Positions 13,694 to 58,152 are shown, counted from the stretch's first letter. The stretch is DNA of 64,000 nucleotides from Candidatus Saccharimonadia bacterium (GCA_041743505.1 JBGTMQ010000008.1:69183-133182); one strand, 5' to 3'. Notes: a model not told the origin generated them from the letters alone. Made by a program: numbers and translations.

Positions 13694-13726
13694 AAAAAAC
13701 GGGCCTCTCGGTCCGTTTTTTGGTAT
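13694..13726 (+). terminator. rho-independent terminator after tuf
   Basis: AAAAAACGGGCC-tctc-GGTCCGTTTTTT, a 12-bp stem followed by a T-run. Confidence 0.8.
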
Positions 13727-13783
13727 TTTACGAATATCATGGCATAATCGAGGCGGGTATGTACCTTCTATCGAGGAGCTAAC

Positions 13784-30572: not shown

Positions 30573-31073
30573 ATGGCGATTGTTGAGCAACCCAAAGAAT
30601 TTGAAGAAAAAGTCATTAATATTGACCGCGTCGCCCGCGTAGTCAAAGGGGGCCGCCGGTTCCGCTTCCGCGCCACGGTAGTGGTAGGAGATGGCAAAGG
30701 CCGGGTTGGCGTCGGCGTCGGCAAAGGTTCCGAGGTCATGACTTCAATTGCCAAGGCTGTATCACGAGCCAAGAGCCAAATGATCACCGTGCCCCTCAAA
30801 GACCATACCATCCCGCACGAGATTCAGGTCCGTTTTTCCGGCGCCCAAGTACTACTCAAGCCTGCCTCGCCCGGAACCGGCGTCATAGCCGGCGGTGCGG
30901 TTCGCAATGTAGTTGAGGTAGCAGGCATCCGTGACCTCTTGACCAAATCGCTCGGGAGCAGTAATAAAGTAAATAACGCTTATGCCACGGTTGTAGCGCT
31001 ATCACAGCTTAAAGCCGCCCCGGTCAAGGCCAACAAAAAGGCCGCAGCTGTTACCGAAGAAATAGCGGCTTAG
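30573..31073 (+). CDS. rpsE: 30S ribosomal protein S5
   Basis: [37 protein letters not shown]. Confidence 0.95.
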
Positions 31074-31083
31074 GAAACGAATC

Positions 31084-31581
31084 ATGAAGATCCACGAATT
31101 AAGTCTCAAATCCGCCAAAGACCGCAAACGTATCGGTCGTGGTATTGGCTCAGGGTACGGCAAGACTGCCGGCCGAGGAACCAAAGGCCAAAATGCCCGG
31201 ACCGGTGGCGGTGTCCGTATCGGCTTCGCCGGCGGTCAAAACCCATTGGCTAAGTTGCTCCCTAAAAAGCGCGGCTTCAAAGCCATTTTCCCGGTAACAA
31301 ACCAGGTGGTCAGCATCGGTCAACTCGACCGTCTCAAGGATGGCGCCACGATCGACAACGAAGCCCTGGCTAAAGCCGGCTTCATCAAGAAGGCTGACGA
31401 GCGCGTCAAACTGCTCTCCGGCGGCGAACTGACCAAGAAACTGACTGTTAAAGTACAGGCAGCTAGCGCAGCCGCAAAGTCCGCCGTCGAAAAAGCAGGT
31501 GGCACATTTGAGCTAACAGAACTTCCGAAGGTTGCTAGCAAAAAAGCCACTCGTAAAACAGAAGATACCTCTGCCTCATGA
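31084..31581 (+). CDS. rplO: 50S ribosomal protein L15 (directly follows S5; no L30 gene between)
   Basis: GRGIGSGYGKTAGRGTKGQNARTGGGVRIGFAGGQ. Confidence 0.95.
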   Translation: MKIHELSLKSAKDRKRIGRGIGSGYGKTAGRGTKGQNARTGGGVRIGFAGGQNPLAKLLPKKRGFKAIFPVTNQVVSIGQLDRLKDGATIDNEALAKAGFIKKADERVKLLSGGELTKKLTVKVQAASAAAKSAVEKAGGTFELTELPKVASKKATRKTEDTSAS

Positions 31582-41019: not shown

Positions 41020-41094
41020 GCCGACGTAGCTCAACGGTAGAGCAACAGTTTTGTAAACTGTAGGTTGCGGGTTCGATTCCTGTCGTCGGCTCCA
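41020..41094 (+). tRNA. tRNA-Thr (anticodon UGU), CCA encoded
   Basis: Acceptor GCCGACG/CGTCGGC, anticodon stem ACAGT/ACTGT with loop TTTGTAA, T-loop GGTTCGATTCC. Confidence 0.7.
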
Positions 41095-41196
41095 GAAGTT
41101 GTAATTATACTCTCTTCCACCACTAGCTTTCATTCAGTCTTTATCAAGGGTCTTATTAGTATTCTCGAGCTGCCGGACCCTACCCCCGAGCAGCTT

Positions 41197-42102
41197 GTGG
41201 CCGTTACCACCAGTGCCATCGCCTTAGGCAACCATACCCTCCTAGACAGAGCCCGAAAACTTATCACACCCCGTCTCCAGTCCACAGCAATCAATACCTC
41301 AAGCGAAGACTTTCAGGTACTCAGGCATATCTTCGCCGCTTCAGACCCATTCGCATTGGTGCATCATCGCACCACACCGGCTGGCTTCGGGCTCCAGTAT
41401 AACGAGCTTCGAAGCTTCCGTCCCCGGCGCGAGTCCACTACTGCAACACCAACTGTGCACCGGCCATTCGAACCAGCAAAATTCAATTTTACACACATTT
41501 CAGGAGAGCGGTACTGGCAGGGAAGCTTTGGGAACAAACTGCTAGCTTGCTACTACAACAAGTATCCGTTTGCGCCATACCATACTTCACTTGTACCGGA
41601 TCCAGACAGCGACCATGAGCAGTTTCTAACTCAACCTTACCATGAACTAGCCTGGAATTTCCTACAAGCACTGGCCGGTGAGCAGCCAAAGGCCGTGCTC
41701 GGCTATAACTCTCTTGGCAGTTATGCCTCCATTAACCATCTCCACTTTCAACTCGTAGCTGATGGGCACAAGCTCCCGTTGTTGCACTCAAAGAACCTTA
41801 CTACCTATCCCATACCGGTAACCGAGCACCAAAACATCCAAACTGCTTGGCGTCAGATAGCTCACTTACAAGCCACTCAGCAGCCGTTTAATCTCATCTA
41901 TAGCGCCGGCCGGATGATTGTCATTGAACGGCAATTCCAGGGCACCTACCCACAACCAAACTGGACCACCGGCTTTGCCTGGTATGAATTATGCGGCGGC
42001 ATTATCACGGTCAGCGAGGACGCGTTCGATCGTATCACCGACGACGATATCACAACCGCCCTACAAACCACAGTTTCCGTGGCTAAAGCCTTGTCCAGTT
42101 AA
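41197..42102 (+). CDS. hypothetical protein; possible HIT-superfamily GalT-branch (HxHxQ) nucleotidyltransferase/phosphorylase
   Basis: INHLHFQLV (H-phi-H-phi-Q). The track ORF (41065) overlaps the tRNA and has no ATG after the tRNA end; GTG at 41197 was chosen tentatively. Confidence 0.4.
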   Translation: MAVTTSAIALGNHTLLDRARKLITPRLQSTAINTSSEDFQVLRHIFAASDPFALVHHRTTPAGFGLQYNELRSFRPRRESTTATPTVHRPFEPAKFNFTHISGERYWQGSFGNKLLACYYNKYPFAPYHTSLVPDPDSDHEQFLTQPYHELAWNFLQALAGEQPKAVLGYNSLGSYASINHLHFQLVADGHKLPLLHSKNLTTYPIPVTEHQNIQTAWRQIAHLQATQQPFNLIYSAGRMIVIERQFQGTYPQPNWTTGFAWYELCGGIITVSEDAFDRITDDDITTALQTTVSVAKALSS

Positions 42103-42145
42103 GCAGTTTGTTATACAATAGCCAGGTTAAAAACCAAATTAACCG

Positions 42146-42231
42146 GCCGGGTTACTCAAGTGGCCAACGAGGGCTGACTGTAAATCAGCTGGCATTAGCC
42201 TTCGGGAGTTCGAATCTCTCACCCGGCACCA
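42146..42231 (+). tRNA. tRNA-Tyr (anticodon GUA), long variable arm, CCA encoded
   Basis: Acceptor GCCGGGT/ACCCGGC, anticodon stem GCTGA/TCAGC with loop CTGTAAA, T-loop GGTTCGAATCT. Confidence 0.7.
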
Positions 42232-42311
42232 TATCAAACATTGTGTATACAACAGACTGATGCAGTGCAAGGAATGACGAAGCAATGCGCAGGCTGTTGG
42301 AGACACGCTAA

Positions 42312-42386
<75 letters not shown>

Positions 42387-42411
42387 TGAACAATAAGGAA
42401 TTATCAAGACT

Positions 42412-42609
42412 ATGAAACGGCTTGTACGAAGCGAAAAGGATAAAAAAGTTGCAGGTTTATGCGGCGGTATTGCCGAATACGCCGATATTGACCCAACTGT
42501 CGTTCGTCTTATTGTATTAACCGTTATCATCATGAGCGGCGTCCTGCCTGGTATCTTACTGTATGCAGTGGCCGCCGCTATCACCCCCAAAGAAGGAGAA
42601 GTAAAATAA
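42412..42609 (+). CDS. PspC-domain small membrane protein
   Basis: KKVAGLCGGIAEYADIDPTVVRLIVLTVIIMSGVLPGILLYAVAA matches the PspC domain consensus. Confidence 0.7.
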   Translation: MKRLVRSEKDKKVAGLCGGIAEYADIDPTVVRLIVLTVIIMSGVLPGILLYAVAAAITPKEGEVK

Positions 42610-42771
42610 ATGCCTAAACGTAACCGGCCATTCGTGGCTTTGGAGTGCACAAGTTGCCATAACCGCAACTACACCACCTCCAAAAACCCCAAAAACACCA
42701 CCGATCGCCTAGAACTCAACAAGTTCTGCAAGCACGAGAAAAAAGTTCTGGTTCACAAAGAAACCAAATAA
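42610..42771 (+). CDS. rpmG: 50S ribosomal protein L33 (below the ORF-track size cut-off)
   Basis: [53 protein letters not shown], with the C-x2-C...C-x2-H pattern of L33. Confidence 0.8.
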
Positions 42772-42920
42772 TCTCTCCGCATCAGCGGATATAAAGTATG
42801 GGGCCTGGCTTCCAAAGGAGCCAGGCCTTTGTGGTCAACAGAACTCCAGACAGTATCTACTTAGCATGGACGCAAGTCACTACCCTAAGTATACTAACCG
42901 TAATAACATGAGCCTCATCC

Positions 42921-43871
42921 ATGGCCGAAAACCTCCAGCCAACTAGCGAACAAGAGCCAGACACCGGCTTTCCCCAAGCCGCCAAGCTACTAGCCGGCCT
43001 AAATGAAGCACCTCGACCGGCAATCCCCATGCCGCGTGCACCAAAAAAACGCCCGGAACTGCAACAGATTGATTTAGCCAACAAGCTCAGGCCAATCTAC
43101 CAGGAAGGAACTCAGTCAGAGCACGGCCATAACGAGCCACAAATACAAGAGCTGGCCGAACAGTACCAACTCAAATACCCCAACGAGCTTGAGGCTATCA
43201 CCATCCTCACTAATGTGCAGTCTTTCCTCGAACTCACCCAGCGTGTCAAAGATCCAGAACTCAAGCGGGAAGAAAAAAAGCCGCTTTTCAAGGAATTAAC
43301 CGAATATCAGTACCTTTGGACGCATTTTGTCATTACCAACTCTGACAAAACCCGGGTCATGGAGGACTTCTGGGAGGCTACCCACCGTATTGCCGAATCA
43401 GCCGGCTATGCAGAACCAGCCCGGGCATACCAATCCGGCATTATCACAGCCGCCGCCACCTATCAGATCTTTGAAGCTCTCGGCAAACAGCCACAATTGT
43501 CGCACCCTGCCGAGGACGCCTATGATGCAATTGATCTTTGGATTGACGAAACCAATCAACCCGTCCAAATCAAAAAAAGTAACGCGTCAGAAGTCGAAAT
43601 CGAAAAAACCGAAGACATAGAATTCCCTGCCCTAGAAGTAGCCGGCCCAGCCGGCCACACGCAGCATTTTGCCATCGAACAGCCAAACAGGGAACAGATC
43701 CAATTCAAGATGAACATCAAGCGATACGCCGAGCGTGTCGGTCATCCCGTGGATGGCTATTTTATACGCGTACCGTATGGACAGGTTGATTCCACCACCG
43801 GAAAACCGACACCAGAGCTAATCGAGCAAGTCCGCGCCAAACTCGCCGCCGAGGAACCCGAAGCAGCTTAA
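42921..43871 (+). CDS. hypothetical protein (316 aa)
   Basis: ORF track only. Confidence 0.45.
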   Translation: MAENLQPTSEQEPDTGFPQAAKLLAGLNEAPRPAIPMPRAPKKRPELQQIDLANKLRPIYQEGTQSEHGHNEPQIQELAEQYQLKYPNELEAITILTNVQSFLELTQRVKDPELKREEKKPLFKELTEYQYLWTHFVITNSDKTRVMEDFWEATHRIAESAGYAEPARAYQSGIITAAATYQIFEALGKQPQLSHPAEDAYDAIDLWIDETNQPVQIKKSNASEVEIEKTEDIEFPALEVAGPAGHTQHFAIEQPNREQIQFKMNIKRYAERVGHPVDGYFIRVPYGQVDSTTGKPTPELIEQVRAKLAAEEPEAA

Positions 43872-43921
43872 ACTCGACTAAGCCGCTTAAATTAAGTACA
43901 ATAAGCCGGTCATAACCATTT

Positions 43922-43997
43922 AGGGGTGTAGCTCAGTTGGTAGAGCACCGGTCTCCAAAACCGGGTGTCGTAGGTTCGAGTCCTATCACCCCTGCCA
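43922..43997 (+). tRNA. tRNA-Trp (anticodon CCA)
   Basis: Acceptor AGGGGTG/CACCCCT, anticodon stem CCGGT/ACCGG with loop CTCCAAA, T-loop GGTTCGAGTCC. Confidence 0.75.
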
Positions 43998-44012
43998 GAA
44001 ATTATCAAACAT

Positions 44013-44552
44013 CTAGGTTAGATCTAATTCAACAAAACTAGCCTTTTCTACCTCAAAATCCCAAGCTTGCTGATTTGTAAGCCCGTTCAGTAATCCATAG
44101 ATAGCCTGTACTATAACCATCGACGTAATGATAAGTACCGATTCGTATTTTTGTGTCCGCACTTCATCGATAAAACTCGCTGCCCGGGCTTTAACATCTT
44201 CTAGCGACTCACCATTATTAAAACGCACAGACCACCTATCATCAGCCTGATCGAGGGCTGCATAGTATTCTCTGAAATGCTTATCTTCATAACCCGTCCG
44301 GTTGTCGTTTAAGCGAGAATCTACCTTTACGGGAGCATTATGAAATTCATTAACGATTTCTGCGGTTTTCTGAGTGCGCTTAAGTTCAGATACAAAAATC
44401 TGGTCTATTCGTATCTTGCTGAGTTCTACGGCCAAACCCTTTACCTGTTGAATACCAGTTTCAGTAAGATGAACGTCCGTTTGCGGGTCGGAATTACACA
44501 AACCCAAGTCGTTATAATTAGTTTGTCCATGTCTAGCTAAGTATATTTTCAT
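44013..44552 (-). CDS. histidine phosphatase superfamily (phosphoglycerate-mutase-like) protein
   Basis: MKIYLARHGQTNYN (RHG catalytic motif). Low-GC gene. Confidence 0.8.
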   Translation of the reverse strand: MKIYLARHGQTNYNDLGLCNSDPQTDVHLTETGIQQVKGLAVELSKIRIDQIFVSELKRTQKTAEIVNEFHNAPVKVDSRLNDNRTGYEDKHFREYYAALDQADDRWSVRFNNGESLEDVKARAASFIDEVRTQKYESVLIITSMVIVQAIYGLLNGLTNQQAWDFEVEKASFVELDLT

Positions 44553-44681
44553 TTCTCTATAGTAAATGTATCTATCGCTATTACCTAAATCACTCGTGTC
44601 GTCCTCTTCACTTCTTTAAGGATAAACCAAAAATGGTGGCCTATATTTGCATTTTTACCACGCTAGTGGTTAAGTGTCGCT

Positions 44682-45251
44682 ATGGTCAAATTTGAGCCTG
44701 TACCTTCAGCTTCCAAACCCAAGTGCTATAGGATGGAGACACTAATACCTACAAGTACTGCCAATACACTTAAAACAATCCGCGACCTAGAAGGAAACAA
44801 TGTTACAGAAGTTGTTCGCAAAGTAGTAAGTATGTACAAATGGTATGACGACTGCAGAATAAACGGGAACCTTCTCATAGCCGCCCAACCACAGCAGCTA
44901 GAGGTGCTTGAGCCACCGGCCACCGTTAAGACCGGTGAAAATGAAGAACATGCAAAATTGTCCATCAAGGTAAGTCCAAGTATAAAGAGCTGTCTTGAGG
45001 TATTAATACCAGATGACCTCATGGATGAATCCGGTTTCTGGAAGGCAGCTGTTGTTTTTTATAGTTCCCTCATGGAAAAACAGCTTCTTGGCTCAAAATT
45101 CTATTGCATAGCCCCGGGTTTATCAGTCAGTCAATTTCACTTGGATGATCCTTTTGCGTCTGACAATAGTGCTCCAACAACCTTCGTTGAATGGAGATGG
45201 CTTAATCTTGATTTTGTGAGACGCCTATTCCGCAAGAAGCCACCTGGATAA
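44682..45251 (+). CDS. hypothetical protein (189 aa)
   Basis: ORF track; low-GC region. Confidence 0.4.
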   Translation: MVKFEPVPSASKPKCYRMETLIPTSTANTLKTIRDLEGNNVTEVVRKVVSMYKWYDDCRINGNLLIAAQPQQLEVLEPPATVKTGENEEHAKLSIKVSPSIKSCLEVLIPDDLMDESGFWKAAVVFYSSLMEKQLLGSKFYCIAPGLSVSQFHLDDPFASDNSAPTTFVEWRWLNLDFVRRLFRKKPPG

Positions 45252-45477
45252 GGTGGACACCACTCAATGCGATTCAACAGGGCAAACGAAAAACGGCTGC
45301 ACTATGCCCACCCCACGAAGCCATCACATGATGGCTTCTTTCTTGTTATAGACCCAAGCCAAAACAAAAAGCCCAAAAGTATTGCTATTAAACAATAAAA
45401 ATGATATAATATAATATCCTCAATCGAGTGATAACTCCTGCCCACATCCACCCCGAGACTCGAGGAGATGATCCGCA

Positions 45478-45855
45478 ATGTCGGATATCGAAACATTTTA
45501 CTACAACGCAGCAGCCAACGGCGTCGATTTCAAAGGGCACTGGGCAAGCATCATCCGGTGCTTTATCGTAGAGCCCCTCAGATTCGAAGCCCTGGTCGGG
45601 ACTGACGGACAAGTCAAATGGAAGGCACTCATGGAGCTCGGTCTCCTCGGTGCGCCCAGAAAGATCCGGCACCGGCACGGGTGGCACTTCCGCCCCTTCA
45701 CGACGACAGAAGTCGAAGCCATTTGCAGCTTATTCGCCGGTGGCGAAACAGTCCTCGGCCTTCACGCCCCAATCGACTTCTTCCACGGCCAGGACCGAGC
45801 CGTCTTCGGCAACCCCCTCGCGGGTACGGGCTTAATCCTACCACGTAACAACTAG
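45478..45855 (+). CDS. hypothetical protein (125 aa)
   Basis: ORF track only. Confidence 0.35.
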   Translation: MSDIETFYYNAAANGVDFKGHWASIIRCFIVEPLRFEALVGTDGQVKWKALMELGLLGAPRKIRHRHGWHFRPFTTTEVEAICSLFAGGETVLGLHAPIDFFHGQDRAVFGNPLAGTGLILPRNN

Positions 45856-46101
45856 CATCAACCGAGTAAACGGTCACAAGTCCACTAATGGCCAGGAGAA
45901 GCAACCCCTCTCCTGGCCATTCACATTACGATGTCATCTTCATCTATGCGTCAATCAAAATAGCCAAGCACACAAGATTATTGCAATTTTTTGATCGAGG
46001 CAGCCATATCTGGAAAGAAATGCAAGAAATGCCATTGCCAAGACATAAAAAAACAACATACAATAACACTAAAGTGGTTATGCTAAAAAGGTGGAGGGTT
46101 T

Positions 46102-49100
46102 ATGTTTCGATTGAGAAGCGTCCGGCGACTCGTACGTCAAAGTTCTATGGCTGCTAGTCGCCTTTTAAGTATAAAATTAATAGCAGCCTTGAAAGAACAT
46201 AAATTCAAGCAACCGGTAATTCATCTTTCAACAAACCCGTTTAGGGCGATATTAACACGCAACACCCTCAATATACTTGCCGTTGGCGTATTTTTTCTCA
46301 ATATTACCGCCATAGGTATTCCGGGCCTTATGGCCCAGTGGCAGGAGAAGGAGGCCCGAACGCCTCAAGCTCTTCAAGCTACGGATAATGATTTTGCTGC
46401 AGCCGCAGACGGCGCTAGTACCTCAAATAAGGCGTTAAAACTCGATAAAGCCGTAACAGATGAACTCGATAAGACGCGAGAAGAACTCATTCATGGTAAG
46501 GCAAAAAAGAATCCTAAACGCGTAAAAATGCTCGAAGAAGACCGTGACGTCAACTCCCGCGTTTTCTTAAATGACGATGGCTCAAAAACCCTAGAGAAGA
46601 GCACCTCTGCCACCAGTTACCGTGACAGCTTAGGCAAATGGAAAGACGTGGATGTCTCACTTGAGAAGGATTCGGTTAAAAATGAATGGAGTACAAAATC
46701 CAACTCCTGGAAGGCAACTTTTAAGGAAGCCAACGCTGAAACTGCAGTTGAATTATCACGTGGGGCACAAACTGTCCGCATTGCACCGGTAGGAGGCCAA
46801 AAGGTCAAGCCGACAGTAACTGGTAATGCGCCAAAACAATTAGTTACTTATAAAAACGTCTGGCCTGACGTCGATTTGCGTTACGTAGTAAATGGCTCGT
46901 CAGTAAAAGAGAGCATTTGGATTAAAGCGCCAACACAGCAAACAGAGTTTCAATTCAGCGTTAAAGGAGGCAACCTTTCGCCAAAGCCCGGTGAAACTGG
47001 CCGCTACAGTCTTGATGGGGAACTGTCTGATTTCACTCTCACGCGTTCATTTGTTGCCACAGCCGATCAGGGCATAGTGGGGGATGACGGATATATTACA
47101 CAGGATGTAAAACAAAACAGCATAATCCTAAAACTTAACCCGGAGTGGATTAAGCAGCAACCTGCTAAAGCATATCCGGTTGTCATTGATCCTTCCTTTA
47201 CTAGCTACACAACCGCACAAAACCATATGTCCTTTAAATCTGATGGCTGGTCATGCAACGCGCTCGACTGCGGAATAGGCACTGGCTACACAGGATCTCA
47301 CCAGTGGCGTAGTATAGCCTGGTTTCCCTATGACACCCTGGGACAAGCACCCACTAAGCACCTCACCAGCGCACAACTGTACTTGGAGATGGTTGACCCG
47401 GGAGTGATCAGCTACCCGGGTACCTATGACCCAAGGACAATCTCAGTCTATAAAGGCCAACGCGGCAGTAATGGTCATTATAATATAAACAGCGGCGTAA
47501 CTGATTATGGCATGGGTAGTGGCTCCATAGGGTACAACGGCACTATTGACGTTACAACTATATATCGCAATGCAATTGCAAATGCCGACTGGGGTATGCA
47601 TCTGTTCTTTGTTGGTGATGAAAGTCAGTATTCATACAAATTTAAGACATATCCAGATGCAAAGGTAACGTTTACCTATACTCACTCGCCGGGAGCCGCC
47701 ACACTCGAAGCACCCACAGATAAAGCATCTGTAGTTACGTCTCAACCTGTACTAAAAGCGAGCACCGCCACTGACCCCGATGGAGATCCGGTGCGGTACC
47801 GCTTTAAAGTGGCCACCAGTCCTGATGCCGAAGGTGGTACGGTAGTGAATTCGGGCTGGCTAGACACTCCGCAATGGACTGCTCCGGATGGCTCACTACA
47901 GGATGGAATGACATACTATTGGAAAGTTCAAACGTGGGACGGACTGTACATTAACTCATTTGGTACAGCAGGCTCCTGGAGCACCAGTTCAATCAGATCG
48001 TTCCGGGTTGATATGCGTAAAGGCAAAGACAATACTCAGGCCTATGACGCTGTCGGACCAATTAATGTCGATCTTGCTACAGGCAATCTAACAACAGGAA
48101 CAAAGAGCCACAGCATAGCTGCGCTTGGTGGTTCACTCGGCGTGAACCTGGACTACAACTCACCTCAGCGTTCACGCCCGGGCCTGATAGGTAAGTATTG
48201 GAATAATCCCACGCAGGCCGCAACATTCCCATCATCCTCAACCGCAGCTAGCGTAGAGCGGGTTGATGGCGTGGTTGACTTTAACTGGGGCAGCGGTTCG
48301 CCCGAGCCGGCCACTGTAACCACGGATAATTTTCTTGTCCGCTGGTCAGGTTATTTTGTAGCGCCGCAAGCTGGCACATATCAATTCGGAACCACCAGCG
48401 ATGATGGTGTACGCATTTACATCAATGACCTCAACACGGCATATGTTGATCAATGGAGTACTAGCCCAAGTAACATATATGGCGCAAGCGTGACGCTCGC
48501 GGCTGGTCAAGTAATTCCAGTTAAATACGAGTACCGTGAAGTCGGCGGACTGGCAAATACCAAGTTTCTCGTAAAAACGACTGATAGCTCTATTACTGCG
48601 CAACCTATACCAACTTCATGGCTGCAAACCGGCACACGATCTGTGGCGGTAGAACATGGACTCACTGGACGATACTTCGCCTACACAGGAGACAATCCGC
48701 CCGCCTCTCCATCAGATAGTGATCCAAGCCTATTCCTCAAACGCACAGATAGCAGCCCGTCATTCTATTGGAATAGTGCGGCCCCGGTATCTGGCGGGCC
48801 AACAGACAGGTTCTTGGTTCGTTGGACAGGTTATTATACGCCGGATGTGACAGACTCCTACCGATTCCGGATTGCAGCCGATGATGGCGTACGCATGTGG
48901 GTGAATAATCTTATTACGAACACGCAAGTTATTAACGACTGGGCAGATAATCCAGGCACGCGTGAGCAAGCCACGCCTATTTCACTAACCGCAGGGCAGT
49001 CCTATCCCGTTACAATCGAGTATTATGAGCACATTGGTAGCGCCATTTTCGACCTGCAATATAAAGGTTCCGATGGGATTTCTAAGGCCGTTCCATCTAA

Positions 49101-52100
49101 GTTGCTTAGCCCTAAGGTTCAAACGTTGCCCGACGGCTGGACGCTTGGTGGCGATATAAAGGGTGATCTGCCCTACGACTTTGCCCATATCGGCGCAAAT
49201 TCGGCAGTTCTCCAGGACACGAATGGTGAGTCGCATGAGTATAAGTGGACTGGCGCATCATACATTTCTCCTCCGAACGAAGACGGGCAGTTAACGCGTA
49301 ATGATGATGGCACCCTAACACTGCAGGCTGGCGATGGTCGCACCTACATCTTCGGGACAGATGGCAAGCTTTTGTCATCAACCTTACCAGCGGATGACAA
49401 AAATCCAGCTGCCGTTCAATACGAATATGGCCTGACGCCTTCTCGTCTCACTAAAATCAAGGACGGCATCAATCTTAACCGTTACGCTGAGTTGATTTAT
49501 GCTGGTGATAGCCGTTGTCCAAGTGCGCCAAGCGGATTTGTTGGAGCCAATGGCACAATGCTGTGCGCCGTCGTAACAACCGACGGCTCAACCACTACTC
49601 CGACAGATGCTAACATAACAAAGTTCTTCTATAGCGCCGACACCGGCGGCAACAAGCGTTTAGCCCGAGTAGTATCACCCGGAGCCGAGACAAGCGACTT
49701 CTCATACCTCACGGAGGATATTAACTCGCCAAACTCATGTTCTGGTTGTCTAAGTCAAATCCGCGACGCGATTGCAAATGACGCTGTAGCAGCAGGTGAA
49801 CGGTCACAAGACGCCACCGTAATGACTGAAATTGCATATGACGCGTTAGGACGAGTTATGAGCATAACTGGCCCAGCGGCACAGGCCGGGATAGCTCGAT
49901 TGGCCCACACTTACGAGTATCAAGCTGGCCACACGAAACTTCATACTACTGGCGCCACGGAGCCTAATGGCTTTACCCGGAAGGTTACATATGACAGCAC
50001 GTATAGGACGACAGAGGACCGCGATGCAGCCAATGTAGCTACATCAACCGAATGGGATGCTGGTAAAGACCAGGTTTTGTCATTAACGGATGGCGCTGGG
50101 CTTAAGAGCACAACGCATTACGACTACGCCGACCGGATAACCGACCAGTACGGCCCGGCCCCGGCCGGTTGGTTCGATATGACTCCTGGTACGAATTATA
50201 ATAAGCCTTCATCGGGCTATATCAATCAGATCCCACGTAAGCAAGCCAGCTATGACGAGGGCATTAACGGCCTCGCTGCCTCGTACTACACTTATAGCAC
50301 TAGCAGCAAAGCTCTAACGGGCGCGCCTAAGGGGCACCAAACAGGCATCGGCGGCACCGGCGGTGACGTAAATAAAAACTGGGCCGGCACGGCTCCATTC
50401 ACCACTTCATCACCATGGGGTGCGCGATTAACCGGCGATATCCTGTTGGGCGCAACCGGTAACTATACCTTCCGCATAGCCAGCGATGATGGAGTGCGGC
50501 TCTGGATTGACGATAAGCTCGTCATCAATGACTGGGCTGACGGCAGCTACCGCTCACATACCCAGCTCACAGGTGTGACAGTCAATAATGACACAGCCAA
50601 TAAGTACCATCGCATTCGCCTCGATTATTACAATAAAAGTAGTTCGGAGTCAGATGCGCAACTAGTGCTCTATATGACACCGCCAGGCGGCTCGGAGCAA
50701 TCCGGGCTCGGCAGTATTCTTGTTCCTCGCTATGGACTCGCAACAACTGCTAAAAACTACGACTCCTCCAGTAGCGTAGGTGATACTACCATCGCGACTA
50801 ACTACGGGAACAACCCAGAGCTAGCACTGCCGCAGTCTAAGACGGTTGATCCCGGAACGGGCACATTGAATCTTGCTAAAACCGCTAGCTATGAAACTCA
50901 GGGCGCAACCGGTAGTTACTTACGTCAACTCGGCACTGTACTGCCAGGCGGAAGTTCAACGAGTTATGGCTACTACTCGGCCACGGAAGTAAAAGATAAC
51001 CCTTGCACAACTGGCATTACCGAAACGTATGTGCAGGCCGGCATGATGAAGCTAAAGACACAGCCAGATCCTGATGGAGCCGGCTCTCAGGTCGGACGAA
51101 AATCGGAATCCATATATGACAATGCAGGACGAATAGTTGCCGCTCGTTACAATGCCGATTCATGGACATGCACAACCTATGACAACCGCGGCCGAGTAAC
51201 CCAAGTCTCAGTACCGAGCATAAATGGTCAGCCCGGCCGGACCATCACAACGAATTGGGCCGTAGGCAGCAATCCATTTGTAACCAGTATCACCGATAAC
51301 AACGGAACGGTAACTACAACTTCAGACTTATTAGGCAGAACAGTCATCTATCAGGACTCTCTCGGTACCTGGACCGACTACTCATACGATAGCCAAGGCC
51401 GCTTGATCAGTAAGGATAGCGATATGGGCTTAGAAGAGTTCGTCTATGACAGCTATAACCGGCTAACTGCGCAGAAGCTTGATGGCACAACGCTCGCAGT
51501 ACCGACGTATGATGCTTATAGCCGCATCACGAGCGTGACCTATCCGACGGCTGGGGCACAAGCTTTATCCATCTCACGGAATGACCATGGTCGCACCACA
51601 GGCTTAGATTACACCCTTGGCAACGGGTCAACGCACCTAACCGATTCCATTACACGTAGTCAATCTGGCAAGGTTGTAGGCGGTACAGAGTTAGGCCAGA
51701 CTAAGAGTTACACTTATGACAAAGCAGGCCGCCTTACGGCTGCGACTATCGGTTCGAACCAATTTACCTATAATTTCGGAGCCCCCACTGGCTGCTTAGG
51801 CGCCTATAACGCCGATGCGGGCAAGAACGCCAACCGTATAAGTATGAGTAAAACCGTAGGCGGAGTAACTACATCTACTTCTTACTGCTATGACTATGCT
51901 GACCGGTTGATCCAAAGTTCAGACTCCAACGCTGTAGACCCAGCCTATGACTCACATGGAAACCTCATAAATATGGGAACTTCGTGGAATGGCAAGTACA
52001 CGCAGTTCGCATATGACTCAAGTGATCGCAATATTGGTGTTCTTCAAAACTGGGGCAATGATTACGATATATATTACAACCGTGACGTTCAAAATCGCAT

Positions 52101-53166
52101 AACCTCAAGATTCGTTGCAGGCCTCAGTACAAGCTCAACCTGGTATGGTTTCACAGGTGCCAGTAGTGCGCCCGCCTTTACTCGAAATGCCAATTGGGAT
52201 ATTACAGAGAAGTATATGTCGCTCCCTGGCGGCGTACTATTAACCGTACGTCCCGGCCAAACTGGTGATAACCAAAAAGTATTCTCACTTCCCAACACTC
52301 ATGGTGATGTGATGGCTACCACCAACACGAGCGGCAACCAAACTGGTACGTTTAGCTACGATCCGTTTGGACAGACCCTAAGCTCAAGCATACCCGACAA
52401 TGCAGCAGGAGATGTCTCATTTGCTTGGGTTGGCCAACATCAAAAAGCCACTGAAGCAGATTTGGCGCTTAGGCCGATCCAGATGGGAGCTAGGGTGTAC
52501 ATTCCTTCACTTGGGAGATTCTCGAGCACAGACTCTGTAGAGGGTGGTGCCGAGAACGCCTATGTCTACCCTCCCGATCCAATTAATCTGTACGATATCG
52601 ATGGGAAGAACACGGCAGAGGAGGCCCTGGATGGTATAGGCGCCAGCGCAAATAGTGTTGGCTGGAAACTCGACGCACTCATGGTGGCCGTAGGTGTCGC
52701 ATGTGTAGCCAGCGGAGTCGGGGTAGTCATTTGTGGCGTAGGAGCCGCAACCGGTCTAGTTGTAACGACGGCTCAAGCATACAACAAGCACAATCGAGAT
52801 CCTGGCGCTGCAGCTGGAGAATTATTTCTATCAAGTATTTTCTGGGCAGCAGGTGGACCAATAGCTAAAAACATTGCTAAAATCAGCATCTCCTACATTG
52901 CTCCTGTCATTGCGCAGCGAGTAAAGCAGGTGGCGCCCGCAACGCCAATACGTGCAATTAATCGAACAGTGGCTACTGCAAAGCAGACTATACGGAACTC
53001 AATAGGTTATGCTGCAACCCTGTACGATGCGGCACGCCATATACCAGCTGCAAATCGGAACTATAATTATGGTGGAACACCCTATATGACAAGCCCATGG
53101 AGCGGGTATGCGGAGGTAAAAGAAATGATTCTGAAACACTTGGCTAATACGTGGAGAAGGGTATAA
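46102..53166 (+). CDS. giant polymorphic toxin: N-terminal signal-anchor, three PA14 domains, RHS/YD-repeat shell, RHS core ending DPINL, C-terminal glycine-zipper toxin domain
   Basis: GGAGG RBS. PA14-like segments start at ~48181, ~48658 and ~50269, each with the FLVRW(S/T)GY...DDGVR(I/M/L)(Y/W)(I/V)(N/D)(D/N) pattern. Many YD repeats ([29 protein letters not shown]...). RHS core tail ...[39 protein letters not shown] at ~52480-52605. The C-terminal 186 aa contain [26 protein letters not shown]. Confidence 0.9.
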
Positions 53167-53484
53167 ATGCGAATCTTTCCGGATAGATCCAGAAACTATA
53201 AAATCAAGGGGTGTGTTTGTGGAGAAACCAATGAGTCACTCAAGGTAAATAAGAACATGTATCATAATACGATCTTTCTATCTCTACTTAGTGTCCCGGT
53301 TATTCTGGGCTTTCCATGGGTAAGCCTGCACACTGATTTAGGTACAAAAGGTATAGTTGCCTGGGGGCTGATTCTAATTGTCTTGGGTTTTTATACATAC
53401 GGTACTACAAAGTTACTTGGTAAAGGCCATTCCTTGTTATGCTCTGTTCGACGAACAATGATTAATTTTGGAGCATTAACCTAG
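53167..53484 (+). CDS. putative cognate immunity protein (two-TM, CxCG...GHxLLCxxRR family), paralog 1
   Basis: Start abuts the toxin stop (TAAATG). MRIFPDRSRNYKIKGCVCGE..., two hydrophobic helices, ...GKGHSLLCSVRR. Confidence 0.65.
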   Translation: MRIFPDRSRNYKIKGCVCGETNESLKVNKNMYHNTIFLSLLSVPVILGFPWVSLHTDLGTKGIVAWGLILIVLGFYTYGTTKLLGKGHSLLCSVRRTMINFGALT

Positions 53485-53504
53485 GCACCAAATAACAGAT
53501 GTGA

Positions 53505-53888
53505 AGCACTGGCTCACACGACAATACGTCCGATGGCGCATTTGTAGGTGAGGCTGGGCTGGGCCTACTATTTCTTGGACTAGGCGGGGAAGGAGCAAAA
53601 CAAATAGCTAAGATAACAATAAAGCCCATCGCAGCCAAAATAGCTCAGACAGCTCGCCAAGTTGCACCAAAGATAACCATAAACAATAAGGTTGTCGCCG
53701 TAAAGCAGCGCATCCAATATACAATTGGATATGGTGCAACAATAACAGATACATTACGTCAGATCTGGCCCAGCAAGCCGGTTTATAACTATGGTGGTAC
53801 GCAGTATATGACAAGTCCTTGGAGCGGCTTAGCGCAAGCAAAGGAAGTCATTATGAAATACTTAGCTAAGGCGTGGAGCGGGGCTTAG
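53505..53888 (+). pseudogene. orphan, start-less toxin C-terminal cassette paralogous to the last ~105 aa of the 46102-53166 toxin
   Basis: Frame-0 translation ...GGEGAKQIAKITIKPIAAKIAQTARQVAPKITI...[35 protein letters not shown] aligns with the toxin end ...[29 protein letters not shown]...[35 protein letters not shown]. No start codon; the frame is bounded upstream by a stop at 53502-53504. Confidence 0.7.
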
Positions 53889-53889
53889 A

Positions 53890-54217
53890 ATGCAAATATT
53901 CCCAAATCGCAAAAAAAAAGCAAAGCGTTACTTCATGTATTTGTGGGCGGTCTAACGAAATGCAAAAGATAAATAAAGCGAAATATCACAATATGACCCT
54001 ATTAATCAGTATGGGCCTAGTTGGTTACCTAGGTGCATTAGTGATTTTCCCGATGTTACTGCAGTCGCCCCGAGGTGTTACTACGAGAGGATGGATTGCC
54101 TTCGCCATAGGCACTTGCATGGTAGCGTATCTGATCTTCCTTGTCAGAAAAAATACAAAGCAGGGCCACAAATTACTTTGTTCAATGAGAAAATCCATGT
54201 TTCAGCTTGCGAGTTAG
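53890..54217 (+). pseudogene. immunity-family paralog 2 interrupted by a frameshift in an A9 homopolymer (53911-53919)
   Basis: ATG at 53890 reads MQIFPNRKKK, then hits a stop after 21 codons. The -1 frame continues ...KQSVTSCICGRSNEMQKINKAKYHN...QGHKLLCSMRKSMFQLAS. Removing one A restores a 108-aa paralog. The track's intact ORF needs a GTG at 53873 inside the preceding cassette. Confidence 0.6.
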
Positions 54218-54264
54218 CCGAGCACTCCTAAGTGCTCAATGTAGCGAGCACCACTTACACTAAG

Positions 54265-54543
54265 ATGAAAATATTTCCCCTCCCTTTAACGAAATATCCT
54301 CTAGACAAGGCGCTCAAAGAGATTAAGTTGTTCTTGGCCATTGGTTATTCAATACTTGCCTTAACGGTGTTCGTAAGCATATTCTTCGCATTGCCTGCGA
54401 TGGTGGTATGCGGTCGTCCGCTCGTATTGTGCTTTAATCCCGCTGTCAAAAAGCATCCAGATGGTAAAAAATACATGACTGCGAGTGTTGTGTTAGCGGT
54501 CCTATCGGTTCTATGCTTTGTGGTGTATCTAATAGTCAAGTAG
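54265..54543 (+). CDS. small two-TM membrane protein (MKIFP... N-terminus, distinct core), putative immunity paralog 3
   Basis: Internal Met start MKIFPLPLTKYP chosen by analogy with the paralog N-termini. Two hydrophobic helices. Lacks the GH.LLC motif. Confidence 0.45.
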   Translation: MKIFPLPLTKYPLDKALKEIKLFLAIGYSILALTVFVSIFFALPAMVVCGRPLVLCFNPAVKKHPDGKKYMTASVVLAVLSVLCFVVYLIVK

Positions 54544-54593
54544 CATTCTCCGCACACTACTTACATTTATATAAAGTTTAAGCAGCTGATAAC

Positions 54594-54914
54594 ATGAAAT
54601 TTTTCCCAGACCGTTCAAAAAAATATAAGCTAAAAAAATGTGTATGCGGGAAAGAAACCGAAAATGTCAAAGTTAACAGGAGCATATATCATAACGTAAT
54701 TCTATTTACGATAATTGGCGTTTTCGGTTTCCTTCTCTTGACCGTAATCAGTTTCTATACTCCGTTGCCTACTGATTCATGGATTGCCTGGCTGATTATG
54801 GCAGCAATACTTAGCTATGATGGATGGCAACTGTGGGTTAATACCCAACAGGGACATAATTTATGGTGCGCACTGAGAAGGGTCATGATAAGTGTTGCAG
54901 GAGCTAAAGACTAG
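54594..54914 (+). CDS. immunity-family paralog 4
   Basis: MKFFPDRSKKYKLKKCVCGKETE..., two TM helices, ...QQGHNLWCALRR. Confidence 0.65.
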   Translation: MKFFPDRSKKYKLKKCVCGKETENVKVNRSIYHNVILFTIIGVFGFLLLTVISFYTPLPTDSWIAWLIMAAILSYDGWQLWVNTQQGHNLWCALRRVMISVAGAKD

Positions 54915-54994
54915 AAAGACTCACAGAATACTTGAGCTTACAGCTATGATAATATTTTCTCATGCTTGCCAGACATCGAAATAACTAGCTCGAC

Positions 54995-55420
54995 ATGAAT
55001 AGCCCTGAAATTCTTGGCTGGATTATTTTTTGGCTTGGAACGTTGTTATTCACGGTCTTCTGTATTTATATTGCACTTCGAATAAAGGGTAACAAAGATC
55101 GTGAGTACACCGTTCGCCCCTGTATTTGCGGTCGCCGCGCCCCCTCAATCAGTTTATTCGCAGGCAATGGTTCAGGCTGGGCCGGATTCATCATTCTATA
55201 TAGCCTAATGGCGATATTACCCGCATTGTATATCGTAGACGCAACGAGTTTTATGCTGATTGAGATCCCCTGGTATTTATGGTTATCCTTGGCCCTATAC
55301 CTGTCAGGAGGTCTTGTCCCCCTTATTAAGTTCATCACTTGGGGCCATTCGCTATTGTGCGCATTACGCCGGGGACTTCTTGGCCTCGTATGGTTTTTTC
55401 ATTACAGCCACAAACACTAG
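54995..55420 (+). CDS. immunity-family paralog 5 (extra N-terminal TM helix)
   Basis: ...RPCICGRR... then TM helices and ...WGHSLLCALRR. Confidence 0.55.
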   Translation: MNSPEILGWIIFWLGTLLFTVFCIYIALRIKGNKDREYTVRPCICGRRAPSISLFAGNGSGWAGFIILYSLMAILPALYIVDATSFMLIEIPWYLWLSLALYLSGGLVPLIKFITWGHSLLCALRRGLLGLVWFFHYSHKH

Positions 55421-55522
55421 ATCCAATAGCCTTTGCGCTGTATCTAGCAGCCAAGTACACATTCGCGTGCCTGTACATGCGGCATATCAAAGGAAAAGCT
55501 TCAACGAAACCGGGCAATACTG

Positions 55523-55741
55523 GTGTTACAAAGTGGCTTGTTTATTATTGCTCTTCCAATAATACTTTCGCTGCTTATCTTTCTCGACTGGAGAGAAATG
55601 CTAAGTAAACTTTGGTTCGCCTACATATTCACGGCCGGGGAAGTCATTGCGCTCGTAATAATCGCTAGACGCTATCGACGCAAGCGTCATGGAACAATCT
55701 GCGCGCTACGCCGCGCACTTATCGCTATGTCGCCCAGATAA
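55523..55741 (+). CDS. immunity-family paralog 6 (short, C-terminal motif only)
   Basis: Two hydrophobic helices then RHGTICALRRAL. Confidence 0.45.
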   Translation: MLQSGLFIIALPIILSLLIFLDWREMLSKLWFAYIFTAGEVIALVIIARRYRRKRHGTICALRRALIAMSPR

Positions 55742-55810
55742 GCTTTCCTTTATATCCATATAATGGTAAAGTAGCTTATCCTTCCCGTTCATGTCCGAAA
55801 GGGGCGGAAG

Positions 55811-57097
55811 GTGGATGACTCCGCAACGACCGAACTCATTCGGTTAAACGCACTATGCGGCAAAAATATTGGTGCCTACATGAACCAAGTCCGCCGCATC
55901 CCATTCCTCATCCCTCAACTACAACAGGACCTAGCCACCATAGCCCAGGAAGGAGTTGAGGCCGAGGAAAGCCTGGAGAAGTGCCTCAAGGGCAAGCGCA
56001 CATTGACATCAGCCCAACGAAAAAGCCAATGGTACACTCGGCTTCAACGCCAAATCATCGCAGGCAAAGAGGCCCAAATCCGCCTGGTCTACCATAATCT
56101 GCGCTTCGCAGCCTACTTTGCCCGCCATTCCATGGGCTGGAAACAGCATTCCGATGATGAGTTCATTACTGAGCTGAACTTTGGAAAACCACGTGGTGGA
56201 GCGCCGCTACACACCCTGGATATGTTTGCGGGCAATTCATTGCCCCTGGAAGATAGGATACAGGTAGGCAATCTGTCGCTCATCAAGTCAGCCGGCAAGT
56301 ATCAACCATATTGCGGCGAGAGGATAGACCCGGTCACCGGAGCAAAAACCACCAAGCCCATCGCCAAATTCACGACCTATGCCGCCCATAACCTCTACGA
56401 TATGCTCCACCGGGCGTTTATGGTCGAAAAGTACCGTGACGGGCTATCACTCAGCTTGGCCAGAAGTATGCACCAAATGCAGGCAGCACGTAAAAAGCTC
56501 CGACGGCTCACAGGCTACGAGCCGTCCATCAATGAACTGGTGGACGACACCGATCTTGGTTACAAAGCCGTCGAATTTCGTCTCGAGGAGGAATTTGGAT
56601 GTCCCAACACCACGCTGGAAGAGCTAGCCACCACCACCTGGGTCCACGACCTCGCCACCAACGCCCGGCTGGGCCTGGCGGACCTGCTCTGGGATGACAC
56701 CATCCTGGACCCGCACGACACGCTCATCGAGCTTGATCTGCTAGATAGCATAGAGCGGGTTCTGGGCACCCTGTCAGAGCGCGAAGCCGGCGTAATTGCC
56801 TTGCGGTTTGGGCTTCGCGATGGCGAGTGCCGGACACTGGATGAGATTGGTTATGTCTATGGCGTAACCCGCGAACGCATCCGCCAAATCTTGGGCCACA
56901 CCATGACATTGCTTCGCCACCCGTCGCGAAGTAATCAATTGCGCAACCACTGGTGTGAGCAAGACCCGCTCGAAGAGCGCGATGAGCGCCGCGAAGCCAA
57001 GGAACGCCGCGACCGTACCATCACGCTCCTCTCGCATCCGCATCTCTACCCGGACACCATTAAGCCAATAGCCAAGCACAGGGCTAAGGCCAAATAG
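55811..57097 (+). CDS. sigma-70 family RNA polymerase sigma factor, highly divergent with insertions in region 2
   Basis: Region 1.2-like YMNQVRRIPFLIPQLQQDLA. Region 2.1/2.2 IRLVYHNLRFAAYFARH ... DRIQVGNLSLIKSAGKY. Region 2.3/2.4 FTTYAAHNLYDMLHRAF. Region 4 LSEREAGVIALRFGLRDGECRTLDEIGYVYGVTRERIRQILGHTM. Basic/acidic C-terminal tail. Confidence 0.75.
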   Translation: MDDSATTELIRLNALCGKNIGAYMNQVRRIPFLIPQLQQDLATIAQEGVEAEESLEKCLKGKRTLTSAQRKSQWYTRLQRQIIAGKEAQIRLVYHNLRFAAYFARHSMGWKQHSDDEFITELNFGKPRGGAPLHTLDMFAGNSLPLEDRIQVGNLSLIKSAGKYQPYCGERIDPVTGAKTTKPIAKFTTYAAHNLYDMLHRAFMVEKYRDGLSLSLARSMHQMQAARKKLRRLTGYEPSINELVDDTDLGYKAVEFRLEEEFGCPNTTLEELATTTWVHDLATNARLGLADLLWDDTILDPHDTLIELDLLDSIERVLGTLSEREAGVIALRFGLRDGECRTLDEIGYVYGVTRERIRQILGHTMTLLRHPSRSNQLRNHWCEQDPLEERDERREAKERRDRTITLLSHPHLYPDTIKPIAKHRAKAK

Positions 57098-57207: not shown

Positions 57208-58152
57208 CTAATCAACGCTCTCTTCGTCATCGATATCGGTACCGTTATCTCCAGTTTGCCCATTATCAGGAGCACAGGCTGTTAGCCGCAAGCGGCGGCG
57301 CGCAAACTTGGCCTCAAGCATCTCACGAGTCTGGAAGAACTTATTGCCATGCCAAATCTCCGCCAGCGACGTATCCTGCACATTACCCACCGTCAACCAG
57401 CGCGAGAACACGCACGGCAGAACATTACCGGTACGGGTGATAGCCACCACGCTCTTAACGCAATGCCCACAGAGCTCGTCGGTAGTAGCACACAGGCTGC
57501 GCTCTCCGCGCCCCACCTGCCGCAAATGATCCATCCGGATAGACTTCTCGAACACCCCCAGAGACATGAGATCCCTGCGGGCGCCGGCACAATCCTGGCC
57601 ATTGCCCGAATCAACAATCCCAACCCGCAGCCGGATATCCCGGCGAAGTGCCTCAATAATATTATCTCTAGTCCGCCCATGGCTGCCACGCCGCTTGGTG
57701 ATAGCGTCATGCTCAGTGGCAATGCTCGAATGATAGCTCGTAGCAACCCTCACGCCCGGGAGCGAGAAAACCTCCCACACCTCCGGCTCGACGAACATAA
57801 GGTTGGTGTAAACCTCTACCTTGAGCTCACACGAAAGTGCGTAACGAATCAAAGACGACAGGGAAGGATGTAGTGTCGCTTCACCCCCAATGAACTGCAC
57901 CATATCGGCGCCAAGTACCTTAACGTCACGAATCACCCGCCGCCAGTCGTCATCCGACATGCTACCGTGATTGCCACGAGGGCCAGCGTTCAGGTAGCAG
58001 ATAGTACACTCTTCGTTGCACTTGTCGGTAATCTCAAGCCACGCGAACTTGAGTCCCGTGCTTGCCGTCTGCGACCTTGCTTCTTCTGCTACCAGTGCAG
58101 TCATAGCGGTCCTGCTTCCTATTGGGATGGATAGAACACAATGCCGGCCCAT
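57208..58152 (-). CDS. radical SAM enzyme with C-terminal SPASM/twitch-like Cys-rich domain
   Basis: CNEECTIC (C-x3-C-x2-C) SAM-cluster motif. C-terminal LCGHCVKSVVAITRTGNVLPCVF... Confidence 0.75.
   Translation of the reverse strand: MGRHCVLSIPIGSRTAMTALVAEEARSQTASTGLKFAWLEITDKCNEECTICYLNAGPRGNHGSMSDDDWRRVIRDVKVLGADMVQFIGGEATLHPSLSSLIRYALSCELKVEVYTNLMFVEPEVWEVFSLPGVRVATSYHSSIATEHDAITKRRGSHGRTRDNIIEALRRDIRLRVGIVDSGNGQDCAGARRDLMSLGVFEKSIRMDHLRQVGRGERSLCATTDELCGHCVKSVVAITRTGNVLPCVFSRWLTVGNVQDTSLAEIWHGNKFFQTREMLEAKFARRRLRLTACAPDNGQTGDNGTDIDDEESVD

Follow-up and report, generated by a model that had tools for sequence, protein, structure and literature searches.

A giant PA14-RHS polymorphic toxin locus in a Candidatus Saccharimonadia genome, with a very rare C-terminal domain family and a candidate family of two-transmembrane immunity proteins

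We analyzed a 64,000-nucleotide stretch of DNA from Candidatus Saccharimonadia bacterium (GCA_041743505.1, JBGTMQ010000008.1:69183-133182; this whole stretch is called 'the window' below, and positions are counted from its first letter), focusing on a giant rhs gene and the small genes that follow it (Table 1). The gene is one unbroken open reading frame (ORF) on the plus strand at 46102-53166 that encodes 2354 amino acids (aa), and its domain matches identify the product as a giant RHS polymorphic toxin with three PA14 modules. The exact 2354-aa protein forms a singleton cluster in a collection of 15 billion proteins. The ATG of the next gene, I1, abuts the TAA stop codon of the toxin, and a GGAG lies upstream of I1. 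Behind I1 come a remnant of a second C-terminal toxin domain (CT) and a series of small ORFs, most of which carry the same cysteine and histidine signature as I1. On the evidence given below, we consider it highly probable that this is a polymorphic RHS toxin-immunity locus.

Table 1. Features of the toxin locus, in window coordinates (TM, transmembrane helix; HMM, hidden Markov model)
Feature	Coordinates	Strand	Basis
rhs gene, PA14x3-RHS polymorphic toxin, 2354 aa	46102..53166	+	ORF and Pfam/NCBIfam matches
N-terminal hydrophobic segment, aa 55-78, predicted signal peptide or signal anchor	46264..46335	+	Kyte-Doolittle scan
PA14 domain 1, aa 691-820	48172..48561	+	PF07691 E 3.9e-20, isolated segment
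PA14 domain 2, aa 852-998	48655..49095	+	best PF07691 stretch, profile positions 3-144 of 147
PA14 domain 3, aa 1429-1532, ahead of the main RHS repeat block	50386..50697	+	PF07691 E 9.4e-19, isolated segment
RHS-associated core, aa 2086-2168, with D2144 (DSVEGG) and D2165 (DIDGK)	52357..52605	+	TIGR03696, 8h8a/7q97 alignment
D2165-I-D-G-K2169, DPxGL equivalent, predicted autoproteolytic site after K2169	52594..52608	+	TIGR03696, alignments, relatives
CT toxin domain, N2170-V2354, 185 aa, predicted all-helical, net basic	52609..53163	+	homologue search, composition
Gly/Ala/Val-rich hydrophobic block, aa 2189-2226, predicted helical hairpin	52666..52779	+	Kyte-Doolittle maximum 2.53
I1, cognate immunity candidate, 105 aa, 2 TM, CxCG...GHxxxCxR	53167..53484	+	motif, topology, position
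Orphan CT remnant, open frame, no usable start codon	53505..53885	+	CT-family HMM positions 71-180, E 5e-27
I2, candidate immunity paralogue after the orphan CT	53873..54217	+	motif/HMM
ORF X, 103 aa, 2 TM, without the Cys/His signature	54232..54543	+	sequence
I3, candidate immunity paralogue (orphan)	54594..54914	+	motif/HMM
I4, 3-TM subtype paralogue, closest to metagenomic P0004 and P0005	54995..55420	+	motif/HMM
I5, candidate immunity paralogue	55448..55741	+	motif/HMM

The Pfam PA14 profile (PF07691) matched three stretches of the toxin with a total of 206.5 bits (E 2e-61). These stretches were placed by searching sub-segments of the protein, and isolated PA14 segments scored 72.6 and 68.1 bits against a cutoff of 24. 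PA14 (PF07691, GLEYA) domains are carbohydrate-binding adhesin modules. RHS_repeat (PF05593) matched the whole toxin at E 1.1e-14 and aa 1600-2175 at E 2.7e-16, and the YD-repeat model TIGR01643 scored 20 bits on the toxin, above its cutoff of 15.8. HMMER also matched the toxin to the solved Rhs proteins 8h8a, 7q97, 8cp6 (Tse5) and 7pq5. The three PA14 modules, the RHS repeats and the RHS core had all been proposed in a preliminary description of this DNA made from the sequence alone, and the profile searches confirm them. That description also had the PA14 modules interleaved with YD repeats. In aa 1000-1430, between the second and third PA14 domains, YD repeats can be discerned by eye, but TIGR01643 reached only E 0.073 and 13.6 bits there against the cutoff of 15.8, and therefore the interleaving is tentative.

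A hydropathy scan of the whole protein found two strongly hydrophobic blocks only, at aa 55-78 and aa 2189-2226. The first is preceded by a 54-aa Arg/Lys-rich stretch and agrees with the N-terminal signal anchor that had been suggested earlier; a single segment of this kind is also present at the N-terminus of each of the toxin homologues in L006, L007 and L008. When the whole toxin was scanned with Pfam and NCBIfam, no match to PAAR, VgrG or LXG was obtained. A Sec-type signal at the N-terminus together with the lack of a targeting domain for the type VI (T6SS) or type VII (T7SS) secretion system makes up a WapA-like feature set, from which export of the protein is predicted.

At the other end of the shell, the RHS-associated core model TIGR03696 (Rhs_assc_core) matched aa 2086-2168 with 40.4 bits against a cutoff of 32.5 (E 3.1e-10), covering model positions 1-75 of 76 and ending at G2168. 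The motif DPINL (aa 2159-2163) had previously been taken as a variant of the canonical DPxGL that closes such cores. In the HMMER alignments, however, the query DPINLYD lies opposite NPIQWID and NPIGWID of 8h8a and 7q97, and the TIGR03696 match ends at G2168, so that the DPxGL equivalent is D2165-I-D-G-K2169; the earlier assignment was out of register. Therefore, the CT spans N2170-V2354, so that there is indeed a domain beyond the core, but of 185 aa and not of 186 aa. Compared with DPxG-x18/19-DPxGL, the prolines are replaced by Ser and Ile and the leucine by Lys; both aspartates are present, and alignment to the motif in 8h8a and 7q97 puts D2144 and D2165 at the two catalytic positions. The relatives of the toxin read DP[VQ][ES]GG...D[LIY]xG[MKR] here, with a clade-specific DP[VI]NxxD[LIY]xG[MKR]. 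In Tse5, the catalytic residues are D1141 and D1164, and cleavage occurs after L1168 (PMC10684867). By analogy with Tse5 and RhsA (PMC10684867), we infer that the window toxin would be cleaved after K2169.

The same boundary emerged from a scan of genome contigs. In four relatives with 34-44% identity, the match to the toxin stops at residue 2168/2169, and the CTs beyond it differ. They include Ca. Saccharibacteria metagenome-assembled genome (MAG) UBA1932 (L005) and bins of uncultured bacteria. No flanking gene is shared between the window locus and the loci of the relatives, and neither a family match nor a homologue in the relatives was found for the ORFs of 189, 125 and 89 aa upstream of the toxin.

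We then asked whether the CT belongs to a known family. It matched no Pfam or NCBIfam model even at E<=10, none of seven members of the CT family matched Pfam at E<=1, and the CT-family profile found nothing relevant among PDB sequences, the best match being an inositol monophosphatase at E 0.4, which is noise. The domain thus belongs to no named family, as the preliminary description had supposed. Unrecognized CTs are the norm among polymorphic toxins. An exhaustive search of representatives was required because a word-indexed homology search with the CT alone found no homologue. HMMER against 1.84 billion representatives identified P0006, P0007, P0009 and P0010 as true homologues (E 2.5e-21 to 3e-8), all of them metagenomic, and searches of billions of proteins gave about 8 CT copies in all. 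P0006 and P0010 start with RHS core ends fused to the CT (...MGARVY..GRF..DPV.GG...PxDP[IV]N..D..GRN), P0007 is a standalone CT of 164 aa, and P0009 extends past the end of its contig. These results indicate that the CT is a real, very rare family that is absent from Pfam and NCBIfam.

Other candidates from the same search, P0008 and P0011-P0014, were rejected as spurious, having only a repeated match to a C-terminal stretch of about 30 residues; P0012, when its sequence was read, turned out to be a highly repetitive protein. Scans of metagenome contigs with the CT alignment and with the alignment of the immunity family described below gave no confirmed loci.

The small ORF that follows the toxin has counterparts wherever this CT family is found in a readable context. 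In L002, an ORF with CxCG, two TM helices and GHxxxCxR comes directly after a CT homologue. In L004, an ORF of this family occurs twice, each time after a CT, and in L003 one lies just upstream of an orphan module of core and CT. Behind P0007 come ORFs of 104, 112 and 105 aa, and P0004, a 3-TM protein like I4, is encoded about 4 kb downstream of another PA14-RHS gene. Because the linkage recurs in independent metagenomic contigs, we regard the CT and 2-TM families as a toxin-immunity pair; this is the strongest evidence available to us, and it predicts that the 2-TM Cys/His proteins are immunity partners that protect against the CT.

Within the window, the orphan CT remnant sits between I1 and I2 and lacks the hydrophobic N-terminal part of the domain. 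Its 3' end and the 3' end of the main CT form a direct repeat of 100 nt with 77% identity. The remnant at 53505-53885 thus resembles a displaced older CT, and I2 comes directly behind it. The GC content of the immunity array is 0.43, versus 0.53 for the whole window.

I1-I5 show only 18-36% mutual identity, and their invariant signature starts with C-x-C-G in the N-terminal tail, which is basic, and continues through two TM helices to G-H-x3-C-[AS]-x-R. The proteins are predicted to have two TM helices with both termini inside, according to positive-inside counts, and tails of about 30 and 20 aa in the cytoplasm. Since both tails would be cytoplasmic, the Cys3His residues (CxC + HxxxC) could form a single putative zinc site contributed by both termini. 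ORF X shares an MKIFP...Y N-terminus with I1, I3 and the immunity gene of L002, and is probably a paralogue that has degenerated or diverged. The sole canonical start codon of I5 (GTG, 55523) comes after its CTCG motif, so that this gene may be truncated at its 5' end, a pseudogene, or read from a non-canonical start. Against Pfam and NCBIfam, the downstream ORFs gave only sub-threshold matches to unrelated membrane proteins, and the immunity family, of which about 11 members were found, is unnamed throughout. Membrane-embedded immunity candidates had been suggested before; the predicted 2-TM topology agrees with this, and synteny, the CT remnant and the loss of similarity at the core end back it.

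A quite different reading would be that there is no toxin-immunity pair here at all. The hydrophobic C-terminus would then anchor a surface adhesin, and the small Cys/His 2-TM proteins would be regulators, for example zinc anti-sigma-like proteins acting on the product of the sigma-70 family gene at 55811-57097, which follows the immunity array; HxxxC is said to be reminiscent of zinc anti-sigma (ZAS) motifs. However, the hydrophobic domain lies exactly beyond the Rhs core and protease motif, which is the toxin position, an orphan CT remnant is present, no anti-sigma match was found in Pfam, and a sigma-binding domain would not fit into the short cytoplasmic tails. In addition, small ORFs accompany CT homologues in three metagenomic contigs without a sigma gene, and on this synteny we rejected the ZAS-like reading of the small proteins. 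The reading as a whole is very improbable.

The sigma-70 family protein itself (428 aa, plus strand, directly after the array) has a clear region 4 and a weak region 2. Its NCBIfam matches, including one to the anti-phage-associated MzaA, are all far below the cutoffs.

Next, we considered what the CT does. It has 17 Lys and Arg against 9 Asp and Glu residues. In the seven-sequence alignment only G, I, I, Y and S are invariant, and no conserved set of acidic, His or Lys residues was found. A hydrophobic, predicted all-helical domain free of catalytic motifs, paired with 2-TM immunity candidates, makes membrane permeabilization plausible. We therefore regard a membrane-depolarizing toxin as the best-supported mechanism and favor it with modest confidence. 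A membrane-acting toxin would also fit a Sec-exported protein, because no injection apparatus would be needed. Tse5, the ionophore toxins of CDI systems and EsxX, all taken up below, are precedents for such a mechanism.

The steps of this mechanism can be outlined as follows. The N-terminal hydrophobic segment would export the 2354-aa protein via Sec, and the toxin would stay at or near the cell surface, where its three PA14 modules would bind glycans of a neighboring cell. Such surface display and contact dependence are plausible in view of the N-terminal hydrophobic segment and the PA14 domains. The RHS shell would enclose the 185-aa CT until the aspartyl protease of the core frees it after K2169. 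As a non-enzymatic, helical and basic membrane toxin, the CT would then push its Gly/Ala-rich hairpin (aa 2189-2226) and a second hydrophobic helix into the cytoplasmic membrane of the target, and these helices, together with amphipathic C-terminal helices, would open an ion-conducting lesion, so that the membrane potential is lost. The producer would be protected by I1, a predicted 2-TM protein of the inner membrane whose N- and C-terminal cytoplasmic tails may jointly present the Cys3His putative zinc site. I2-I5 would be orphan immunity genes, one of them standing behind the displaced-CT remnant. We infer the export route, surface display, cleavage, zinc binding and membrane permeabilization from sequence features and from the analogies given here.

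Part of the support for this mechanism comes from L005, where an unrelated but equally hydrophobic CT is followed by an ORF with the signature C.C...GH...C[ASC].[RK]. This ORF is the only other carrier of the signature among 1940 open frames examined. It is assigned to the immunity family by motif and gene position, and this is the first of several points that weigh against depolarization, since the ORF has no significant match to the immunity HMM (E 0.36-0.93). Secondly, the glycine zipper is weak. The preliminary description had called the hydrophobic stretch GxxxG-rich, but the stretch it quoted contains one strict GxxxG and the whole CT only two (at 2214 and 2235); the block is better described as one in which Gly, Ala and other small residues are frequent, with two small-xxx-small-xxx-small runs in aa 2192-2204 and a heptad spacing of Gly. 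Thirdly, structure prediction of the CT with AlphaFold2 was of low confidence. The predicted local distance difference test (pLDDT) score was 48 with a single sequence and 35 with a six-sequence alignment; both models are all-helical, and one of them places helices at CT residues 25-39 and 44-64. Because confidence was low in both, they provide no evidence for the fold. Fourthly, the orphan remnant retains only the non-hydrophobic C-terminal 110 aa. Finally, in L007 and L008 a comparable Gly/Ala-rich block directly follows the core and is then succeeded by unrelated tails, and the ORFs downstream of both look soluble. Delivery, and not toxicity, could therefore be the role of the hydrophobic block.

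If so, the post-core block would be a clade-wide device for self-translocation that takes variable cargo across the target membrane, analogous to the N-terminal glycine zipper of Tde1. The toxin proper would be the C-terminal part of about 120 aa (approximately 2233-2354), which would act on the inner leaflet or in the cytoplasm, with immunity exerted through the cytoplasmic Cys3His knuckle. Among the relatives, 4/4 of those whose CT is complete have a hydrophobic block immediately after the core, as does the window protein. By hhalign (E 5e-5, probability 67%), the N-terminal half of the CT family resembles the start of the L007 CT over ~100 residues, while the tails differ, and GIY-YIG matches the tail of L008 at a borderline level (E 2e-4; 21.9 bits, with a cutoff of 22.6). 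The soluble appearance of the ORFs downstream of L007 and L008, the preservation of the C-terminal half alone in the orphan remnant and the cytoplasmic position of the conserved immunity-family residues point in the same direction, and Tde1 provides a precedent (PMC10240207). However, catalytic-type residues are not conserved in the C-terminal half, which also lacks any family or structure match, and every full-length family member retains the two halves of the CT together. Immunity proteins against cytosolic toxins are normally soluble, whereas here only the short tails would face the cytoplasm. Furthermore, the likeness to L007 is marginal (hmmsearch E 0.36) and involves sequence of biased composition. 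We consider this explanation possible but unlikely.

The L008 homologue is a protein of 2638 aa encoded at 6001-13917 of JAYVTZ010000004.1, which is labelled as a Burkholderiaceae MAG. Its Gly/Ala-rich hydrophobic block has about 60 residues, ahead of the borderline GIY-YIG nuclease match. The contig may be mis-binned, because its closest relatives are Saccharibacteria-like. In L005 (6001-8773), the RHS homologue has its N-terminal third broken up over several frames upstream of an ORF of 1982 aa, which may reflect a pseudogene or an assembly frameshift.

We put forward, as a rather doubtful speculation, that patescibacterial PA14-RHS toxins share a post-core Gly/Ala-rich module that lets a Sec-exported cocoon held at the surface insert or translocate its payload across the membrane of a neighboring cell without an injection machine, and that in the present CT family this module itself became the toxin, countered by an undescribed class of 2-TM proteins with a cytoplasmic Cys3His zinc knuckle built from both termini.

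The identity of the target raises a further question. On indirect evidence, the source is probably an ultra-small, epibiotic, Saccharibacteria-like member of the Patescibacteria, and the effector could be directed at the actinobacterial host, serving attachment or nutrient leakage, and not at competing kin; the immunity genes would then guard only against self-damage during export. The closest relatives of the toxin include a Ca. Saccharibacteria MAG, and PA14 domains are carbohydrate-binding adhesin modules. The window also has the ribosomal protein arrangement of candidate phyla radiation (CPR) bacteria: the L15 gene, which begins at 31084, comes right behind the S5 gene, whose last position is 31073 (window 30573-31581, plus strand), and no rpmD (L30) separates the two. 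According to Brown et al. in 2015, missing rpmD (L30) is reportedly a feature of CPR/Patescibacteria. Moreover, a 2487-aa RHS/YD/PA14 putative toxin occurs in a soil Saccharibacteria genome (PMC6031116). On the other hand, self-protection alone would require one immunity gene, whereas arrays of five immunity paralogues that have diverged from each other, together with polymorphic CTs and orphan CT-immunity cassettes, are a signature of competition between kin or strains. A host-directed role therefore seems improbable.

Several observations concern the surroundings of the locus. Four tRNA genes (Thr, Tyr, Thr, Trp; 41020-43997, plus strand) lie just upstream of a stretch of lower GC content at 44000-55800 (0.42-0.51, versus about 0.53-0.56 elsewhere), which contains unannotatable ORFs, the rhs gene and the immunity array. 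This stretch may be an island beside tRNA genes. An Rfam scan found tRNAs only, and a promoter and terminator scan gave nothing above chance. Downstream of the locus, on the minus strand, are genes for a radical SAM/SPASM protein (57208-58152), which may have a small peptide substrate nearby, and for a glycoside hydrolase of family GH6 (59642-60817).

In its repeats, core domain, variable CT, downstream immunity candidates and orphan modules, the locus is of the classical Rhs polymorphic toxin kind, with a protease motif that has diverged in sequence but not in position. RHS polymorphic toxins, RHS toxins with pore-forming tips and a PA14-RHS giant in Saccharibacteria were already known. What is new here is the very rare CT family and its partner, the 2-TM CxC...HxxxC immunity family, both missing from Pfam and NCBIfam. 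Two points exceed the routine: the immunity family with its Cys3His signature and two TM helices, and the hydrophobic module that recurs behind the core. If the CT does depolarize membranes, then microbial dark matter would have supplied a compact membrane toxin that is independent of any apparatus, together with a small immunity protein, and this would indicate that Patescibacteria use classical polymorphic toxins to fight one another or to harm their hosts. The recurrence of the hydrophobic module among the relatives also offers an idea of how Sec-exported RHS toxins may cross target membranes.

Finally, we compared the locus with known systems. Searches of Pfam and NCBIfam with seven CT-family members, and of PDB sequences with the family profile, showed no homology to a characterized glycine-zipper pore-forming toxin (Tse5-CT, TspA/EsxX/TelE, CdzC/D, VacA-like). 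Two glycine-zipper proteins are relevant to the hydrophobic block. EsxX is a glycine-zipper depolarizer (PMC12744356), and Tde1 of Agrobacterium tumefaciens has an N-terminal glycine zipper (PMC10240207). In Tde1, as possibly in the window toxin, a Gly-rich hydrophobic motif that permeabilizes the membrane lies ahead of the toxin domain, and L008 pairs such a block with a GIY-YIG-like tail. However, Tde1 is a DNase delivered by a T6SS, and it has consecutive GxxxG repeats, compared with the two strict GxxxG of the window CT. A parallel for the immunity side is given by the ionophore toxins of contact-dependent inhibition (CDI) systems (CdiA-CT EC93-like), whose polymorphic membrane immunity proteins, CdiI, share about 30% identity within a group (PMC11630599). 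These systems likewise combine small, helical, membrane-spanning and polymorphic toxin domains with integral-membrane immunity, and the window paralogues are similarly divergent. They differ in using CdiB/CdiA two-partner secretion in Gram-negative bacteria and entry domains that hijack inner-membrane receptors, and their toxins have no sequence similarity to the window CT.

With regard to overall architecture, the soil Saccharibacterium Ca. Teamsevenus rhizospherense encodes the 2487-aa RHS/YD/PA14 putative toxin mentioned above, with an immunity gene nearby (PMC6031116). It resembles the window toxin in its RHS/YD plus PA14 architecture, its size, its neighboring immunity gene and its candidate phylum; the likeness is one of description, as PMC6031116 mentions the toxin in passing and without CT or immunity types.

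Tse5 (PA2684) of Pseudomonas aeruginosa is an Rhs protein with a pore-forming CT and the immunity protein Tsi5 (PMC9637101, PMC10684867). There, too, an aspartyl-protease motif closes the RHS shell, a CT of about 150-190 aa comes next, and the immunity gene is immediately downstream; both catalytic Asp positions of Tse5 are kept in the window toxin. The Tse5 CT enters membranes and collapses the membrane potential. In contrast, the two CTs have no sequence similarity detectable by profile search of PDB sequences, the window motif is DSVEGG...DIDGK and not DPxG...DPxGL, and the window immunity family consists of predicted 2-TM proteins with the Cys3His signature. Delivery also differs, because Tse5 is delivered by a T6SS via VgrG/PAAR, whereas the window toxin has a Sec-type segment, three PA14 domains and no T6SS adaptor domain. 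In this respect it resembles WapA/WapI of Bacillus subtilis, reportedly described by Koskiniemi et al. in PNAS in 2013 as a Sec-exported, wall-associated RHS toxin of a monoderm bacterium. WapA is said to be a large RHS/YD protein with a Sec signal, no T6SS, a polymorphic CT, downstream immunity and contact-dependent inhibition, all of which are found in or predicted for the present locus. By description, it is set apart by its tRNase CTs, soluble immunity proteins and wall-binding repeats in place of PA14. By analogy, we suggest that the locus functions like Tse5/Tsi5 and, as regards the logic of delivery, like WapA/WapI.

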